A stretch of 64,000 nucleotides of DNA from Candidatus Sungiibacteriota bacterium (GTDB taxonomy: Bacteria; Patescibacteriota; Minisyncoccia; Sungbacterales; HO2-52-23). The stretch is taken from assembly GCA_016432465.1 (NCBI GenBank), contig CP066690.1:317538-381537 (forward strand), given 5' to 3'. Positions within the stretch are counted from its first letter, which is position 1; each line of letters starts with the position of its first letter. Position numbers and translations under genes: made by a program. Under the pieces are notes generated by a model. That model was given only the letters and a program-made list of their open reading frames with translations, searched no databases and was not told the DNA's origin. Below, piece after piece: positions 10,666 through 40,352 of the stretch.

Positions 10666-11943
10666 ATGGCTCGTCCTCTAAATACAGTGCTTGTTGTGGC
10701 CGGACTGGTTGCGGTCATTTTGATTCTGGCTCTGGCGGGAATACTGCCGGGAAGGAAAACCGCCAAGCCCCAGCCCGCTACTTTGGAATTTTGGGGATTG
10801 AAGGACGATGACCTTTTGTGGCGTCCTATTCTGGAAAAATTCAGGAAGGAAAAACCCCACCTTACCGTAAACTATCGGCGTTTTGACGAAATCTCTTACG
10901 AAGAAAACCTTATCAACAAAATGGCCGAGGGCCGCGGTCCGGACATCTTTTTCCTAAAAAACTCATGGGTTGAAAAACATCGCGACAAAATTTTACCCCT
11001 GCCGCAGGAAGTTTTAAAATTTACCGTCAAAGATTTTCAAAAAACTTTTGTAGATGTCGCCTCTCAAGATTTAACCACCAGCGACAATCAAATCCTTGGT
11101 CTGCCCCTTTTTGTGGACACCTTGGCTCTTTTTTATAACAAAGATGTTTTTAACGCCGGGGGCGTGGCCGAAACGCCTAAAACTTGGGGCGAGCTGGAAG
11201 CTGTAGCCAAGAATCTTACCAAAAAAACTGCGGCAGGAGACATCACAAAGTCAGGAGTTGCTCTGGGCGGATCTTCCAACATTGAACACGCGCTTGAGAT
11301 TTTAAGCGCTTTCGTACTGCAGGGGGGTGATAAAATTATAAATCGCGCTAACATGGCGCTGGAACTTGGCGCCCCATCCCGGGAGGCTCTGGATTTTTAT
11401 ACCTCATTTGCCAACGCTAAAAACCCAAACTTTTCCTGGACATTGCGCCAACCTAAGTCTCTGGACGCCTTTTCGCAGGAGCTTACGGCCATGGCCCTTG
11501 GCTTTGCGGATGATCTGCCCAGGGTTAAAGCCAAGAATCCGCATCTTAACTTCGGCGTATCTTTTCTGCCCCAGCGCGCCGATGCCAAAACCTTTGTAAC
11601 TTACGGCAGTTATTTTTTCCCGACCGTATCCCGCCTTTCCAACAATCCGCTTCCTGCTTGGGAGTTTATTCTCTTTGCCGCATCGGCTGATTCTTCAGAA
11701 ATTTATACTAAAAACTCGGGGAAGCCTCCGGCCCGACGCGATCTTCTGGCGAAAAACGCCGCGGCCCTTGAACTGGATATTTTTTATCGTCAGGCCCTTA
11801 CGGCCAAAAGCTGGCCCATTACTGACGAAAAAATAACTCGCCGTCTTTTTGAAGATACGATAGAATCCGTAGTAACCGGGGGAAATACCACAGACACGGC
11901 CTTGAATCGTCTAAGGGAGAAACTTAGTCTTAGTCTGCCATGA
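10666..11943 (+). CDS. ABC transporter extracellular solute-binding protein (family 1, sugar-type)
   Basis: N-terminal membrane anchor, then typical SBP_bac_1-like sequence (WGLKDDDLLWRPILEKF..., LPLFVDTLALFYNKDVF). Confidence 0.6.
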   Translation: MARPLNTVLVVAGLVAVILILALAGILPGRKTAKPQPATLEFWGLKDDDLLWRPILEKFRKEKPHLTVNYRRFDEISYEENLINKMAEGRGPDIFFLKNSWVEKHRDKILPLPQEVLKFTVKDFQKTFVDVASQDLTTSDNQILGLPLFVDTLALFYNKDVFNAGGVAETPKTWGELEAVAKNLTKKTAAGDITKSGVALGGSSNIEHALEILSAFVLQGGDKIINRANMALELGAPSREALDFYTSFANAKNPNFSWTLRQPKSLDAFSQELTAMALGFADDLPRVKAKNPHLNFGVSFLPQRADAKTFVTYGSYFFPTVSRLSNNPLPAWEFILFAASADSSEIYTKNSGKPPARRDLLAKNAAALELDIFYRQALTAKSWPITDEKITRRLFEDTIESVVTGGNTTDTALNRLREKLSLSLP

Positions 11944-12947
11944 AAATTATCCGCTATCGCACGCTTTCTTTTTGGACCGCAACAACTGGTTTGGTTTTAA
12001 TTGCGGCTGTTTTCGCAATACCATTTTTTGTTTCTGCTCAAGGTATAATCCCGCAGTGTCCGGACCGAATTATTGTTGATTCTGCGGGCAAAGAGCTGCA
12101 AAGGATTCCCAACGTCTGTACGGCCTGCGACCTTTTTAACCTTTCTCAAAGTGTACTTAATTTTGTCTGGAGGCTATCTGCGGTAGGGGCTGCCCTGATG
12201 CTTGGTTACGGCGGGTTTTTGATGATTGTGCCGGGAATTGGCGGAGAAAAATCAGCAGCCATGTATGAGAAGGGTAAAAAGGTCCTAACCAACACAGTTA
12301 TTGGCCTTGTGATTATCTTCTTTGCATGGCTGGCCGTAGATACTATAATAAAAGTGTTGGGGGGGAAAATAGCAGCTGGCTTTGGCGAAAATACGGAATA
12401 TCTGGGCGGCGGAGGCTTTGAATTCGGACCATGGAACCGGATTAACTGTTCGCCCCCGGAAACCAGAAAAGTTGTAGCATCGCCCGCAACAAAACCAACA
12501 ACACCTACGCCAGCCCCCATTCCATCCCCCACCACTAGTCCAACCCTAAATCACGCCGAAGCTCTTGGGATTTTTGCTGCTAATCGTATAAAAATTGAAT
12601 CCAAGGGAAACTGTGATGACCGAAACAGCGCCGTCTGTACTTCTCTTGAGGGCCTAAGGAGAACCACCCTCAATCGTGTAGTACTGTTTAAACTGGAATG
12701 TAACTGCGAGGTTACCGTAAGCGGAGGAACAGAGACGGGACACGAAGCAGGACAGTTTAGTCATGCCAGCGGGTATAAGGTTGATATTAAAAGAACAGCA
12801 GCGGTTGACTCCTATATCACCCGTAACTACCGCAACGCAGGAAAACGCAGTGACGGAGCACAAATTTTTGTTGCGCCGGACGGAGCAGAGTTTGCGCGTG
12901 AAAGCAGTCACTGGGACGTAAGGGGGTGGGATGTAACCGTCCGCTAA
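11940..12947 (+). CDS. membrane protein with N-terminal TrbC/VirB2-like pilin domain, Pro/Thr linker and C-terminal Cys-containing domain
   Basis: Signal/TM, then two TM helices in the same arrangement as the small pilin paralogs downstream (LMLGYGGFLMIVPG...VIGLVIIFFAWLAVDTIIKVLGG); PTTPTPAPIPSPTTSPT linker. Confidence 0.55.
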   Translation: MKIIRYRTLSFWTATTGLVLIAAVFAIPFFVSAQGIIPQCPDRIIVDSAGKELQRIPNVCTACDLFNLSQSVLNFVWRLSAVGAALMLGYGGFLMIVPGIGGEKSAAMYEKGKKVLTNTVIGLVIIFFAWLAVDTIIKVLGGKIAAGFGENTEYLGGGGFEFGPWNRINCSPPETRKVVASPATKPTTPTPAPIPSPTTSPTLNHAEALGIFAANRIKIESKGNCDDRNSAVCTSLEGLRRTTLNRVVLFKLECNCEVTVSGGTETGHEAGQFSHASGYKVDIKRTAAVDSYITRNYRNAGKRSDGAQIFVAPDGAEFARESSHWDVRGWDVTVR

Positions 12948-13023
12948 AATTAATTAAGTAAACCTATGGATTACGTTTCAGCCACATTTTTAATCAATTT
13001 AATAGTTTTTTATATCGTCACCA

Positions 13024-13383
13024 ATGAGTTGGTTGAACTTTAGGAGGGTGTTTTTAGGATTTGGGGTCTGGCTAAACTGTGTTATACTTACCTTGGTTCG
13101 CTCAACTGTTGTTTTTGCTCAGACCGAAATTCCCAACCCCATCAAATCGCAAGACTTCGGGGAGCTGGTAAAAACCATTGCCCGGGGAATACAGACTATT
13201 GCCTTGCCCTTGGCCGTTGTGGCCATTGTTTTTGCCGGTTTTCAGATGATTATTTCGTCCGGCAACGAGGCCAAGCTCAAGGAGGCCAAAAAAACACTGA
13301 CTTGGGTTTTGGTGGGAACAGCCATTGTGGTTGGGGCAACGGTTCTGGCTGAAGTTATGGTAAACTTTGCCAAAACATTATAA
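13024..13383 (+). CDS. TrbC/VirB2-like (T4SS-type) pilin family small membrane protein
   Basis: Signal peptide ending ...VVFAQ, then two TM helices separated by a SGNEAKLKEAKK loop. Confidence 0.6.
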   Translation: MSWLNFRRVFLGFGVWLNCVILTLVRSTVVFAQTEIPNPIKSQDFGELVKTIARGIQTIALPLAVVAIVFAGFQMIISSGNEAKLKEAKKTLTWVLVGTAIVVGATVLAEVMVNFAKTL

Positions 13384-13420
13384 AAGGTCGACCTTAGTTA
13401 ATCACCATAGAAAAAATATA

Positions 13421-13774
13421 ATGTCTAAACTATTAAAACTCTATCCTACCTTCGTGGTCGGCGCTTCCCTTCTGCCGTTGGTGGCCGGGGCGCAAACCCC
13501 CCAAACTCTGTCAGACATCATTCAAAAGATTAGCGGCACCCTGCAAACAATTATTGGAGTCCTTTTTGTTCTGGCCACGGTCATATTTCTCTGGGGAGTG
13601 ATAAAATTTGTTGCCAGTGCCGGCGATGAAACTGCACGCAGCAAGGCCAAGGGTATTATGACTTGGGGCATAATTGGGCTGGCAGTAATGGCAGCCACTT
13701 GGGCAGTAGTTAATATACTGGTTAACTACTTCGTTGGCACTGATGCCGGCATACCACGGGGGCCGCGTCAATAA
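13421..13774 (+). CDS. TrbC/VirB2-like pilin family small membrane protein (paralog)
   Basis: MSKLLKLYPTFVVGASLLPLVAGAQT signal, two TM helices, SAGDETARSKAKG loop; ATG 13421 chosen over the track start 13367, which overlaps the upstream gene. Confidence 0.6.
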   Translation: MSKLLKLYPTFVVGASLLPLVAGAQTPQTLSDIIQKISGTLQTIIGVLFVLATVIFLWGVIKFVASAGDETARSKAKGIMTWGIIGLAVMAATWAVVNILVNYFVGTDAGIPRGPRQ

Positions 13775-13797
13775 CCAAAAATGTCAGCAACGAGAGT

Positions 13798-14046
13798 ATG
13801 ACAACCATTGCCGACCTCATTAAAAAAATAGAGATCGGACTTTTGAATCCGCTGATAAGTCTGCTTTTTGTTGTAGCCACGGTTGTTTTTTTCTGGGGCA
13901 TTATTCAGTATGTGATCGGTGGTCATGGAGACCCCAAAAAACTTGACCAAGGTAAACAGGCAATGTTTTGGGGAATTATCGGAATGTTTATCATGCTCTC
14001 GGCTTGGGCCATTGTAAATATTCTTGCGAATTTTTTTAAACTCTGA
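13798..14046 (+). CDS. TrbC/VirB2-like pilin family small membrane protein (paralog)
   Basis: 82 aa, two TM helices with a GGHGDPKKLDQGKQA loop; same architecture as the two upstream genes. Confidence 0.6.
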   Translation: MTTIADLIKKIEIGLLNPLISLLFVVATVVFFWGIIQYVIGGHGDPKKLDQGKQAMFWGIIGMFIMLSAWAIVNILANFFKL

Positions 14047-14143
14047 GAAGTAATTAGGTGATAATCCAACCCCGCCCTTTGGGTTTCTCCCCAAAGGGCG
14101 GGGTTGAAATTTGAGCAATTTTTGACTATGATAAAGTTGTGGG

Positions 14144-14250
14144 CTCGCCCCGTTAGAGATTTAGATTGGATATCCTGGTGCACGTTTAAGAACCGAAGTT
14201 AAAGGTATGACTTCTTTTTAGGGCTCACCCTACATCTCTAACGGGGCGAG
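14144..14250. repeat. MITE-like inverted-repeat element (copy Z) whose right arm abuts or overlaps the tRNA-Leu 5' end
   Basis: CTCGCCCCGTTAGAGAT (14144-14160) and ATCTCTAACGGGGCGAG (14234-14250) are exact reverse complements (17 bp) around a ~73-nt core; the same terminal motif recurs at 39025-39143, 39675-39776 and 34954-34967. Confidence 0.6.
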
Positions 14251-14327
14251 TAGCCGAATTGGTATAGGCGCTAGGCCTAGGACCTAGTGGTCGAAAGGCC
14301 GTGGAGGTTCGAGTCCTCTCTCGCCCA
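14244..14327 (+). tRNA. tRNA-Leu (anticodon UAG), type II with long variable arm
   Basis: Acceptor GGGCGAG/CTCGCCC+A, anticodon stem CTAGG/CCTAG, loop CCTAGGA, variable arm GGTC-GAAA-GGCC, T-arm GGAGG-TTCGAGT-CCTCT; position 33 reads C rather than U, which is unusual. Confidence 0.65.
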
Positions 14328-14367
14328 TTTGCCCGTGTAGTTTAACGGCAAAACAACCCCACCCTTT

Positions 14368-14836: not shown

Positions 14837-15001
14837 GGGTGCGTGGCGCAATTGGTGGCGCGTCGGTCTCCAATCCCGCCCTTTCATTGGGGGTGTAAGC
14901 TTAGCGGTAAACTGCGGGTCTCCAAAACCCGACTCCTCCGTTCGAATCGGAGCACCCCCGTTGAAAGGGCGGGACGAGCCCTGGCGCACCCGATACTAAA
15001 A
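14837..15001 (+). other. tRNA-like palindromic shell enclosing tRNA-Trp (5' half of a second tRNA-Trp-like sequence plus complementary 3' acceptor strand)
   Basis: GGGTGCG-TG-GCGC-AATTGGT-GGCGC-G-TCGGT-CTCCAAT (acceptor, perfect D-arm, anticodon stem/loop with CCA) at 14837-14884; far side CGCACCC (14995-15001) is complementary to GGGTGCG; inner 12-bp inverted repeat CCCGCCCTTTCA (14885-14896) / TGAAAGGGCGGG (14972-14983). Confidence 0.5.
14899..14970 (+). tRNA. tRNA-Trp (anticodon CCA)
   Basis: GGGGGTG-TA-AGCT-TAGCGGTAA-ACT-G-CGGGT-CTCCAAA-ACCCG-ACTC-CTCCG-TTCGAAT-CGGAG-CACCCCC-G; acceptor and anticodon stems perfect. Confidence 0.8.
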
Positions 15002-34878: not shown

Positions 34879-34953
34879 CACATCTAGTTGCCGCGCAAGC
34901 GGCCTTTTTTATTTAAAATCGAGGTTCGTCGTCTATAAAAGTGCATAAGAAGT

Positions 34954-35005
34954 CTAACGGGGCGAGCATTGCAAGGGTCACAGGTTCAAATCCTGTACTG
35001 CCCAT
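34954..35005 (+). other. chimeric tRNA fragment: tRNA-Leu 5' leader/acceptor motif fused to a tRNA-Val-like T-arm and 3' acceptor
   Basis: TCTAACGGGGCGAG (identical to 14237-14250 upstream of tRNA-Leu) + CATTGCAAG-GGTC-ACAGG-TTCAAAT-CCTGT-ACTGCCC-A; T-stem ACAGG/CCTGT matches the tRNA-Val T-stem. Confidence 0.45.
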
Positions 35006-35010
35006 TTTAA

Positions 35011-38603: not shown

Positions 38604-38861
38604 TTAGTAACCGAGATGGTCCGTCATTGTCCGAAGGACCGTGTCAGGGTCTGTGTCAGGCAAATAGAAACCTACCGCCTGCGGAGCACCATTGAGAACA
38701 TCTTCGGAGGGTTCTCCTAAGAGCTCCCGTAAGTCTTCTGCCTCTAGTCGGGGAGCCCACACCATGCAATACCCAAAGTGGTCCACGATGACAGGACCTT
38801 CTCCAGCCGCAAGCGAAGCCACGATTATACTGCTACTAACTTCATCGGTCACGATCTTCAT
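38604..38861 (-). CDS. hypothetical protein (appears GC-richer than surroundings)
   Basis: RBS AAAGGAGGAGTCAG then ATG at 38861 (MKIVTDEVSSS...); 85 aa. Confidence 0.5.
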   Translation of the reverse strand: MKIVTDEVSSSIIVASLAAGEGPVIVDHFGYCMVWAPRLEAEDLRELLGEPSEDVLNGAPQAVGFYLPDTDPDTVLRTMTDHLGY

Positions 38862-39024
38862 CTGACTCCTCCTTTCAGTTGTGGGCCCGTGGGCCTGGAA
38901 CATTACTAATCATAACATTTAGACCATTAAAAGTCAAGTTTTTTGAGTTAAGCCAATAAATCACGCGAAATTTGGAATAGCGAATAATCCGGGCCCTATA
39001 CTCCAACAGGTTCTAACATCATTC

Positions 39025-39143
39025 ATCCCGTTAGAAATAGGACGCGGACGGAGTTCTTTACATTTTACTTGTCATTTTTGGGCGAAAGTTACCCTGGAAA
39101 CAAAAGCCGTGTTTGGATACGCGTCCGCGATTTCTAACGGGAT
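39025..39143. repeat. MITE-like inverted-repeat element (copy X)
   Basis: ATCCCGTTAGAAATAGGACGCGGACG ... CGTCCGCGATTTCTAACGGGAT, imperfect ~22-bp terminal inverted repeats. Confidence 0.55.
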
Positions 39144-39429
39144 TCACTAACCCGCTTGTAACCGAAAATAAACCCTCCTACCTACTAACCACAGGGGCAC
39201 GAATAAAAATAACAAGAGTATTGCTGTAAATTCTCCTTGCTATCATCTCAAACTTTTCTGGTTAGTAAGTGGGGGGTAAACAGAAAGAATATGGAAAGTG
39301 AGAAATACCCATAGATACGAGGTTTTTGTTACGAACAGTGAAAAATTGTAACCGCCCGCCTTGACACATAATGAGTAATATGCAACTAATTTATTTAGTT
39401 CCCCATACCACTACATAAGGAGTAAACCA

Positions 39430-39621: not shown

Positions 39622-39674
39622 CAAGGTGGTGTGATTCTTCATCTATCCGTCAAGTGATCTTGGCGGTCTTTTTT

Positions 39675-39776
39675 ATCCCGTTAGAGATTTAGGTAATACC
39701 GAAATAATTAATACTCGCACTCCGCCGTCCTTATCGATGTCATAGAGAGCATTGCGTTCCGCATCTCTAACGGGAT
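39675..39776. repeat. MITE-like inverted-repeat element (copy Y)
   Basis: ATCCCGTTAGAGAT ... ATCTCTAACGGGAT, perfect 14-bp terminal inverted repeats around a ~74-nt core. Confidence 0.55.
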
Positions 39777-39869
39777 TTATTCAAAACTAGGCCTATACCC
39801 GCCCCTTGACATTACTTTATGACCGAACTATTATTGTAATATAAATTATTACAGTAACTGAAAACTATT

Positions 39870-40085
39870 ATGCGAAACATAATTAACCTTTCGTTGCCGC
39901 AGAAGATGACAGAAGTTGTAGAGGAAAATGTTAAAAAGGGCCATTTTTCCAGCAAAAGCGAATTTTTCCGCATGCTCCTTCGTCTCTGGATGGAAGGGAA
40001 ACTTGCGGAAGAACTTGAGGAAAGCCGTAAGGAACTGCGCGGAGGCAAAGGCAAACTACTGAAATCGTTTAAAAACTTCCGATAA
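39870..40085 (+). CDS. type II antitoxin, ribbon-helix-helix (CopG/ParD-like)
   Basis: 71 aa, RHH-like N-terminus (ISLPQKMTEVVEENVKKGHFSSKSEFFRMLLRLW); 9-nt gap to a RelE/ParE-like toxin gene; an inverted repeat TTGTAATA-taaat-TATTACAG sits upstream. Confidence 0.6.
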   Translation: MRNIINLSLPQKMTEVVEENVKKGHFSSKSEFFRMLLRLWMEGKLAEELEESRKELRGGKGKLLKSFKNFR

Positions 40086-40094
40086 GACGACCGT

Positions 40095-40352
40095 ATGCGG
40101 ATTTATTATTCCTCAAAATTTGAACGCGAATATAGAAAACTACCGAAGGAAATCAAGATAGTAGCCGAAGAAAAAGGCGTTATTTTCAGGAAAAATCCGT
40201 TTGACCCCCGGCTTGATACGCATAAATTACACGGTCGCCTGAAAGAGTACTGGGCTTTTTCTATTGTAGACAAATACCGGATTATTTTTGAGTTTGCAGA
40301 AAAAGACATAATCTGGTTTCATTCCGTTGGCGACCATTCAATTTATCAGTAG
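40095..40352 (+). CDS. type II toxin, RelE/ParE family
   Basis: 85 aa; MRIYYSSKFEREYRKLPKEIK...LHGRLKEYWAFSIVDKYRIIFEF...IIWFHSVGDHSIY matches the RelE/ParE fold signature. Confidence 0.6.
   Translation: MRIYYSSKFEREYRKLPKEIKIVAEEKGVIFRKNPFDPRLDTHKLHGRLKEYWAFSIVDKYRIIFEFAEKDIIWFHSVGDHSIYQ

Follow-up and report, generated by a model that had tools for sequence, protein, structure and literature searches.

The elements reported here have counterparts in several described systems. Correia elements, whose host is Neisseria, carry 26-bp consensus repeats and a TA duplication; like the elements below, Correia/NEMIS repeats are about 100-150 bp long, have terminal inverted repeats, lack an open reading frame (ORF), are dispersed mostly in intergenic DNA, fold into long hairpins and lie near the 5' ends of genes. 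The piggyBac and IS1380 elements encode a DDE/DDD transposase of 400-600 aa with TTAA as the target, and share with our elements a duplication of 4-5 bp, a T..A-type target, CCC...GGG termini and short perfect repeats. GIY-YIG homing genes, such as the seg genes of phage T4 and I-TevI, are selfish genes at or between host genes, co-expressed with them and consisting solely of a GIY-YIG nuclease gene. In the REPIN/RAYT and IS200/IS605-PATE systems, short palindromic non-autonomous repeats depend on a small nuclease-type gene with the same repeats, at the lower size limit of mobile DNA. Here we describe three short inverted-repeat elements in a 64,000-nt stretch of the genome of Candidatus Sungiibacteriota bacterium (contig CP066690.1, positions 317,538 to 381,537; hereafter the window). 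They are probably gene-less members, of the MITE type (miniature inverted-repeat transposable element), of a mobile family whose full form of about 276-283 nt has 12-14 bp repeats and one GIY-YIG gene of the UPF0213/YhbQ/Slx1 clade.

Six matches to CCCGTTAGARAT with at most one mismatch were present in the 64-kb window, compared with 0.67 expected, and none of 100 shuffled sequences reached six. They form three inward-facing arm pairs (14149-14160/14234-14245, 39027-39038/39130-39141 and 39677-39688/39763-39774), and the arm sequences common to the three elements and a solo arm at 34950-34966 are CCCGTTAGARAT/ATYTCTAACGGG. The initial annotation, which had listed three inverted-repeat elements and a solo half-site, was thus correct in this respect. 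With one terminal base on each side, element 1 spans 14148-14246 (99 nt; C-CCCGTTAGAGAT ... ATCTCTAACGGG-G), element 2 spans 39026-39142 on the minus strand (117 nt; T-CCCGTTAGAAAT ... ATTTCTAACGGG-A) and element 3 spans 39676-39775 (100 nt; T-CCCGTTAGAGAT ... ATCTCTAACGGG-A). The perfect inverted repeat measured 17 bp in element 1 (14144-14160/14234-14250) and 14 bp in elements 2 and 3, and the stem of element 2 resumes beyond a 4-nt bulge with ACGCGGAC/GTCCGCGT. The three interiors are mutually unrelated. Folding of each copy, which had been suggested as a check, gave a single long hairpin per element on either strand, with energies of -31 to -51 kcal/mol and z scores of -3.95 to -5.87. Element 2 is flanked by TTCA at 39022-39025 (TGAA on the minus strand) and again at 39143-39146, and element 3 by TTTA at 39672-39675 and 39776-39779. 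All three are non-coding and, apart from the duplication at element 1, showed every generic MITE feature that was tested. No additional copy or variant arm was found in the 64 kb.

The arms are not confined to the four loci first listed. When one genome per species was scanned for exact arms spaced 65-95 nt apart, they were found in at least 120 species-level genomes from several phyla. Among the 80 matches listed, about 56 belong to Patescibacteria, also called the Candidate Phyla Radiation (CPR), including Saccharibacteria, Parcubacteria groups, Kazan and others, and 18 were labelled Omnitrophota, Planctomycetota, Deltaproteobacteria/Syntrophaceae, Nitrospirae, Elusimicrobia, Stahlbacteria or Gammaproteobacteria. 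The elements range from 89 to about 128 nt, and their interiors vary between loci, with recognizable subfamilies. A widespread CPR subfamily, to which element 2 of the window belongs, has the sub-terminal clamp AGGACGCGGAC/GTCCGCG; a second has a covarying hairpin of the form AGG-nnnnn-loop-nnnnn-CCGT beside one arm; and a Deltaproteobacteria subfamily contains two conserved GC hairpins. In addition, a sister family with the arms CCCGTACGAAAT/ATTTCGTACGGG and CCCGTATGA variants has its own clade of GIY-YIG proteins and matching short elements (fetched loci L152, L160, L163, L164, L167, L174, L177, L184 and L207). Some predicted ORFs extend into the element, so that gene calling is affected. 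No match was obtained in 2.9 million viral contigs at either the MITE-sized or the full-length spacing, and searches of plasmid and phage proteins returned only distant UPF0213 homologues.

The base pair directly outside the 12-nt arms was T..A in 68 copies, C..G in 68 and another combination in 6, and it was complementary in 136 of 142. Since this terminal pair is nearly always complementary, the element has the form Y-CCCG...CGGG-R, with the consensus Y-CCCGTTAGANAT...ATNTCTAACGGG-R. In 83 of the 142 copies the 4 bp adjoining each end form an exact direct repeat, while a repeat in the 5-nt frame was seen only once. When the right flanks were permuted in 5000 trials, 12.4 ± 3.1 matches were obtained with a maximum of 25. 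Copies such as ATGAG-T...A-TGAG and ACTGA-T...A-CTGA indicate that this is a true 4-bp duplication and not an extension of the inverted repeat. The duplicated 4-mers were TGAA (37), TAAA (17), TGGA (7), TGAG (5) and TTGA (5), among others, and neither TTAA nor TATA occurred. At the four duplicated positions of the 83 sites, T was found in 76, G or A in 74, A in 66 and A in 69, and a purine preceded them in 75. The target is therefore R|TGAA or R|TAAA, and no conservation was detected in the 83 reconstructed targets outside the purine and the duplicated 4 bp.

These results, the target-site duplication among them, supported the proposal of a non-autonomous, MITE-like family, while the comparison with Correia/NEMIS repeats that came with it did not hold. 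The two sets of arms bear no relation to each other, a 4-bp duplication at R|TGAA or R|TAAA takes the place of TA, and the hosts are CPR and other phyla instead of a single genus. Moreover, the cognate full form is a 276-nt GIY-YIG unit and not a DDE insertion sequence, and start codons are rebuilt upon insertion, as described below. The element ends also recall sites of site-specific recombination, either attC-like boundaries of integrons or Xer/dif-like 12-6-12 sites. The integron core sites GTTRRRY/RYYYAAC look like GTTAGA/TCTAAC, tandem junctions of the form ...CTAACGGG-ATTCAT-CCCGTTAG... look like a 12-6-12 site (L008, L061), and small ORFs lie between elements 2 and 3 of the window. Nevertheless, we regard this explanation as hardly credible, because the elements are scattered singly among housekeeping genes. 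The integron comparison was rejected, since the core motifs are reversed (GTTAGA at the 5' side, TCTAAC at the 3' side) and neither an integrase nor an array is nearby, and so was an Xer/dif- or lox-type site, since conservation does not continue past 6 nt outside the arm. No enrichment of recombinases or transposases was found near the 120 loci, whose neighbours are scattered housekeeping genes.

Mobility was evaluated from orthologous sites. An element at one gene is not found at the homologous genes of other loci, and its position is not conserved. Queries composed of the left flank, one copy of the duplication and the right flank were run against all fetched DNA, and empty counterparts of filled sites were recovered. 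The start of one gene carries TCCA-[element]-TCCA in L001, while the same gene in L135 has a single ATCCAT. An element on the start codon in L133 is missing from the orthologous site in L148, and an 85-nt element of L179 is missing from L175, whose flanks are 89% identical. Furthermore, a short element in L002 splits a GIY-YIG gene that is uninterrupted in more than 70 other loci. The existence of filled and empty orthologous sites indicates that the elements are mobile, and the presence/absence comparison with relatives that had been called for thus gave a positive result for the family.

These observations also bear on the possibility that the repeats are ancestral, immobile hairpins of the host that act in regulation or processing, as 5'-untranslated regions, RNase III or RNase P stems or terminators. 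Very stable hairpins at gene starts and tRNA 5' ends, and arms that are identical across phyla, would be expected of such structures, and the repeats bracket a whole tRNA at two loci, as repeats with different arms do for the tRNA-Trp of the window. We consider this explanation very improbable and largely refuted, since the position is not conserved among orthologous genes, empty orthologous sites exist, direct repeats occur at the flanks much more often than chance predicts, a protein gene lies between the same ends elsewhere, and no Rfam match was found. The Rfam 15 search returned only tRNAs, in the window and in 8 loci at the gathering score, and two matches at chance level.

A very frequent insertion site of the mobile family is the start of a gene. 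In 82 of 309 arms, no stop codon interrupts the frame directly after ...CGGG (frame 0) for at least 80 codons, compared with 17 for each of the other frames, and in 59 copies the ATG or GTG start of a host gene lies exactly at the last base of the element. In these cases the start codon is composite: the terminal A or G of the element and the TG of the duplication form ATG or GTG. Elements that end in G yield GTG, and the displaced left copy retains the original ATG. Upstream genes often end a few bases from the left edge, as TAATGAA or ATGA overlaps. A -10-like TAnnnT ending 5-9 nt before the displaced ATG was present in 36 of 69 start-codon insertions, compared with 5-14 in shifted controls, and a Shine-Dalgarno-like motif in only 9 of the 69. 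These results indicated that about half of the target genes appear to be leaderless, which points to a high frequency of leaderless genes in these mostly CPR genomes, as far as can be judged from sequence motifs. We also considered that the element is read through in frame as an N-terminal extension; this was rejected, because the lengths lack 3-periodicity and only some 93-nt copies from Deltaproteobacteria are in frame.

The initial annotation had stated that no transposase lies near the elements. This was true of the 64-kb window, where neither a GIY-YIG ORF nor a recognizable transposase was found, and it did not extend to the family, since elsewhere the same ends bracket a 276-nt GIY-YIG unit. 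Full-length units were first found by searching for more widely spaced arm pairs. At L061 3889-4164 (276 nt) the interior is a single 84-aa ORF between the arms, and at L002 3877-4159 an arm-bounded unit contains a truncated copy of that ORF. In the scan of genes neighbouring the 120 loci, three GIY-YIG ORFs had already appeared, as a small cluster. The ORF encodes a GIY-YIG domain (PF01541, E values of 3e-14 to 5e-17 for full-length relatives, none of them in the window). Three unit proteins were then aligned, and relatives were fetched from metagenome contigs by protein similarity alone. At least 600 candidate stretches were obtained, 552 of which encode a relative, and the best 80 of the 552 were analysed. 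Both arms, with at most one mismatch, were present in 63 of these 80 protein-selected loci, and about 8 more had the sister repeat.

The anatomy was measured on 71 complete units. The core of the unit is 273-283 nt long with a mode of 276, the protein is a single domain of 84-86 aa, and 17 nt separate the ATG from the first C of the left arm. The terminal pair was T..A in 45 units and C..G in 24. An exact 4-bp repeat flanked 33 of the 71, usually TGAA or TGGA and nearly always rich in purines on the ORF strand, and in 40 the terminal base is also where a host ORF begins. The right arm forms part of the ORF, as ...AAG CGY TTC CTA TCT CTA ACG GGR, so that the repeat encodes the C-terminus of the protein with its basic tail KRYLKNRLKRFLSLTG. 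The stop codon is supplied by the duplication as TGA or TAA in 34 units, overlapping the host start as RTGA, and by a TAA within the arm in 22. The ORF is under purifying selection (median dN/dS 0.137, 708 pairs), and the residues of the Y.Y, YTG, R, HN and E motifs (Y.Y..YTG..R..HN..E) show at least 90% conservation. Two units were present on one contig in L170, and degenerate or truncated units were also observed (L002; ends in L154, L156 and L201). Proteins with repeats of the sister type, CCCGTACGA, were mutual nearest neighbours in 7 of 7 cases. The closest solved relatives are UPF0213 proteins BH0048 and EF2693 (1ZG2, 6.5e-9; 1YWL, 1.5e-4), followed weakly by Slx1. Slx1, YhbQ and YazA form one family of structure-selective nucleases (PMC7017083). 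The UPF0213/YhbQ/YazA/Slx1 proteins are the best sequence relatives of the element protein and likewise consist of a single URI/GIY-YIG domain, but they are single-copy host genes without flanking repeats, and no link to mobility was found for them in the literature searched.

Several features connect the short elements with the full-length units. Short elements match the ORF over 16-22 nt at its 3' end (...GCGCTTCCTATCTCTAACGGG) or over 16-29 nt at the 5' end, and the hairpin of one subfamily is built on the last codons of the ORF; the right end of window element 2 on the minus strand, ...GCGTCCTATTTCTAACGGG, is similar to this 3' end. Eight of the 80 GIY-centred loci contain short elements, at a density of about one per 20 kb, and in L167 those beside a CCCGTACGA-type unit bear CCCGTACGA- and CCCGTATGA-type arms. 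The polarity of MITEs with the CCT signature of the ORF 3' end, relative to the asymmetric duplication, agreed with that of the ORF units in 17 of 20. Moreover, as judged by eye, members of the clamp subfamily had the orientation of the host gene in 11 of 11 cases, and those of the Deltaproteobacteria subfamily that of their TAAA repeat in 9 of 9. The shared ends with a GIY-YIG ORF between them thus indicated that the window copies are MITEs of a GIY-YIG-encoding element.

Two other accounts of this connection were considered. Firstly, the short elements might be immobile, each being the wreck, formed in situ, of a full-length GIY-YIG unit that lost its ORF. Short copies do retain only the ends of the unit, and the degenerate units mentioned above exist. 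However, short copies with related interiors occur at different genes of one genome (two copies in L089; L038/L046; L063/L079), the Deltaproteobacteria subfamily with its conserved two-hairpin interior is found at different loci in at least 11 genomes, one short copy was inserted into a GIY-YIG gene, and the ORF leaves no trace in the interiors. We therefore judge this account quite improbable. Secondly, the short copies could be ordinary MITEs of a DDE insertion sequence, for example an IS1380/piggyBac-like one, with the GIY-YIG gene as cargo or a hitch-hiker. Terminal inverted repeats with a fixed-length duplication are a hallmark of DDE transposition, and GIY-YIG enzymes are not known to catalyse strand transfer. 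The piggyBac ends CCCTAGAAAG with their TTAA duplication, and the ends and duplications of IS1380, also resemble CCCGTTAGAAAT with TNNA.

No DDE transposase, however, was present within 8 kb of the 120 MITE loci or within 3 kb of the 80 GIY loci, in flanks of about 1.1 Mb, and among the fetched loci no arm pairs 0.4-3 kb apart enclosed a long ORF. The ORF is fused with the repeat in 63 of the 80 homologues, with a coding C-terminus, a stop in the duplication and a uniform length of 276 nt, and the repeat type follows the protein clade. In addition, a fixed polarity relative to an asymmetric target is not expected of symmetric repeats and a DDE dimer. The target differs from that of piggyBac and IS1380 in being the asymmetric TGAA, and the large transposase of these elements was lacking in the flanks searched. 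Accordingly, a DDE origin seems unlikely, although it deserves more weight than the account by wrecks.

We favour the view that the full-length relatives are themselves mobile by means of the GIY-YIG protein, and propose tentatively, with slightly less than even confidence, that they represent a new class of autonomous prokaryotic transposon. This would be the smallest known (about 280 bp), with an Slx1/UPF0213-like GIY-YIG protein of about 85 aa, in place of a DDE, HUH, serine or tyrosine enzyme, as its sole product. It would insert with a 4-bp duplication at R|TGAA, usually at position +2 of genes, many of them leaderless, or at the 5' ends of tRNAs; its own end would restore the start codon or tRNA end of the host, its stop codon would overlap the host start, and the window hairpins would be its trans-mobilised MITEs. 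In this scheme, the GIY-YIG protein would recognise the repeats, make staggered cuts at the element ends and the target, and mobilise full-length and short copies in trans. More speculatively, cuts of the form R^TGAA at both the ends and the target, followed by joining of the compatible 4-nt ends, would account for the fixed polarity and target specificity as well as for the duplication; the base that comes next is not conserved, which gives no support for a symmetric site in this scheme. As the ends of the element can pair, an enzyme recognising branched or hairpin DNA would be a good match for it, and a preference of the UPF0213/YhbQ/YazA/Slx1 clade for such DNA would be in keeping with this. 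Host genes would survive insertion because the hairpin brings or restores their start. The full-length form could be transcribed from the host promoter, with the RTGA overlap allowing termination-reinitiation, while short copies at leaderless genes or tRNAs would become 5'-terminal hairpins that RNase III or RNase P might remove without any need for ligation. Judged from these arrangements, the design suggests harm reduction for the host.

In comparison with GIY-YIG homing genes, which encode proteins of 200-250 aa with DNA-binding modules, act on one cognate allele through recombinational repair and lack terminal repeats and duplications, the elements described here encode a single domain of 84-86 aa, occupy more than 100 different insertion sites, and have repeats, 4-bp duplications and ORF-less derivatives. 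REPIN/RAYT and IS200/IS605-PATE differ in using HUH (Y1) transposases with single-strand hairpin recognition, in leaving no duplication, and in having autonomous units of at least 700 bp, compared with about 280 bp here. The full-length form is unlike every insertion-sequence family known to us in its enzyme class. If the GIY-YIG protein does mobilise these elements, a nuclease class would be added to the short list of enzymes of prokaryotic DNA transposons, and an autonomous element several-fold below the smallest insertion sequences would make a minimal transposition machinery, of an 85-residue protein and 14-bp ends, accessible to testing. Whatever the mechanism, the family is common in CPR/Patescibacteria and in the Omnitrophota, Planctomycetota and Deltaproteobacteria that occur together with them, and lies on start codons and tRNA 5' ends, with consequences for gene calling, the 5'-end biology of leaderless genes and possibly assembly. 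A host start that is rebuilt, and an element stop coupled to it, would be an example of harm minimised by a parasite. Neither the open-access literature searched nor the 2006 phylogenomic survey of GIY-YIG proteins (PMC1564403) yielded a description of GIY-YIG units bounded by repeats, and this widespread family of about 280-base GIY-YIG elements is apparently undescribed.

Several points weigh against the reading of the window elements as mobile derivatives of a GIY-YIG element. The nuclease is a putative agent of mobility, and its 85-aa domain has no obvious DNA-binding module. To our knowledge, GIY-YIG enzymes are hydrolytic nucleases and not strand-transferases. The GIY-YIG ORF is absent from the 64-kb window, which leaves mobilisation in trans in this genome conjectural, and of the ORF only the ends recur in the MITEs, with no trace of its interior in theirs. 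The fixed polarity and the preference for start codons could also result from selection instead of mechanism, and the conservation of the arms relative to the interiors is partly due to ascertainment, since the copies were collected by exact arms. With regard to the window copies themselves, no presence/absence polymorphism was detected for any of the three: near-identical assemblies, from the same set of runs, all carry them, and public contigs with identical neighbour proteins were 99.97-100% identical to the window and all element-bearing. Finally, no direct duplication flanks element 1; the 4-mers on its two sides are inverted copies (CTCG/CGAG), which is why its repeat reaches 17 bp (14144-14250).

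Element 1 adjoins tRNA-Leu(TAG) (14244-14327, plus strand), which starts inside its right arm. The first three G of the tRNA are the right end of the element, namely the GG of the arm and the terminal G, while nucleotides 4-7 (CGAG) occupy the position of the duplication, and the 17-bp stem takes in nucleotides 1-7. A promoter-like site on the plus strand (TTGAAA-17-TATGAT, 14104-14132; consensus match only) ends 8 nt before GGGCTCG at 14141-14147, which may be a displaced, altered copy of the tRNA-Leu 5' end. This arrangement is consistent with insertion of element 1 a few nucleotides downstream of the original transcription start. Similar cases were found elsewhere. In L090 an element lies behind GGGCGTG of tRNA-Pro with the direct repeat CGTG, and the tRNA now begins with GGGG of the element. 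In L009 tRNA-Leu begins with GGG of the element in the same arrangement as in the window, and the flanking 4-mers are likewise inverted and not direct. The flank GCGAG is also present beside the solo arm and, on one side, beside several other copies. Since the element end ...CGGG-R rebuilds the tRNA 5' end, the arrangement of element 1 and tRNA-Leu is explained. The initial annotation had rightly noticed that the right repeat runs into tRNA-Leu; the mimicry of the acceptor strand that it read into the left arm is best read as a by-product of insertion into the tRNA and rebuilding of its GGG start.

The solo right end on the plus strand, AAGTCTAACGGG-G-CGAG at 34950-34966, has no partner arm and shares 14 identical bases with the right end of element 1. 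On its 3' side, 34967-35006 contains a T-arm-like ACAGG-TTCAAAT-CCTGT and an acceptor 3' strand ACTGCCC-A, followed by a terminator hairpin. No tRNA was called at this site and no significant Rfam match was obtained (E values up to 1). From these motifs, it looks like a decayed insertion at a tRNA 5' end that abuts a truncated tRNA. In L041 (1367-1475) and L119 (3580-3685), a complete tRNA (tRNA-Val and tRNA-Ala, respectively) lies on the opposite strand between CCCGTTAGA-type arms. Neither unit has a flanking duplication, and on one side the flank is the recurrent GCGAG or close to it (GCAAG in L041). The possibility that the interiors in general are degenerate tRNAs, of an origin like that of short interspersed elements, was rejected, since relaxed ARAGORN gave 5 hits in 143 interiors compared with 1 in shuffled sequences, and real tRNAs only in L041 and L119.

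Downstream of element 1, the window contains a cluster of tRNA-Leu, tRNA-Thr and tRNA-Trp with odd spacers. A perfect 13-bp inverted repeat, T-CCCGCCCTTTCA/TGAAAGGGCGGG-A (14874-14886/14962-14974), encloses the tRNA-Trp (14888-14961), and the ends of this repeat also have the Y-CCCG...CGGG-R form with a different arm sequence. This 101-nt unit sits within the apparent anticodon loop of a second tRNA-Trp(CCA) without a T-arm (14838-14993), with a 5' half at 14838-14873 and a 3' remnant ending in ...CGCACCCGA. The unit may be a tRNA-carrying relative of the element family. Upstream of element 1, four small genes of the T4SS_pilin/TrbC family lie in a row at 11940-14046, as is typical of CPR genomes. 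Directly 3' of the pilin gene, CCCGCCCTTTGG at 14069-14106 forms a terminator-like 13-bp hairpin, and its variant CCCCACCCTTT lies at 14357 ahead of tRNA-Thr; this motif is all but lacking in the 200 fetched loci.

Elements 2 and 3 occupy intergenic positions that look neutral. Element 2 lies upstream of a promoter-like site serving the minus-strand gene at 38604-38903. Several independent assemblies of the same population (L121, L125, L126 and L127) begin a contig at about 39020-39021, the left edge of element 2, and its hairpin repeat may break short-read assemblies. Element 3 lies in the T-tract that follows a terminator-like hairpin (39647-39666), and downstream of the element, at 39806-39834, is a strong promoter-like site, TTGACA-17-TATTAT. 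This site would serve the putative toxin-antitoxin pair directly downstream (39870-40352), which consists of a 71-aa protein with a weak RHH_1 match and an 85-aa protein with a weak YafQ_toxin match.

GIY-YIG ORFs of another subfamily, without inverted repeats, were observed in L001 (4385-4705) and L006 (2217-2543). Both lie between a duplicated 5' part of a tRNA and the intact tRNA, and in L006 the pseudo-5'-halves of the tRNA contain an inserted GC hairpin. This looks like a second way for small GIY-YIG genes to colonise tRNA loci.

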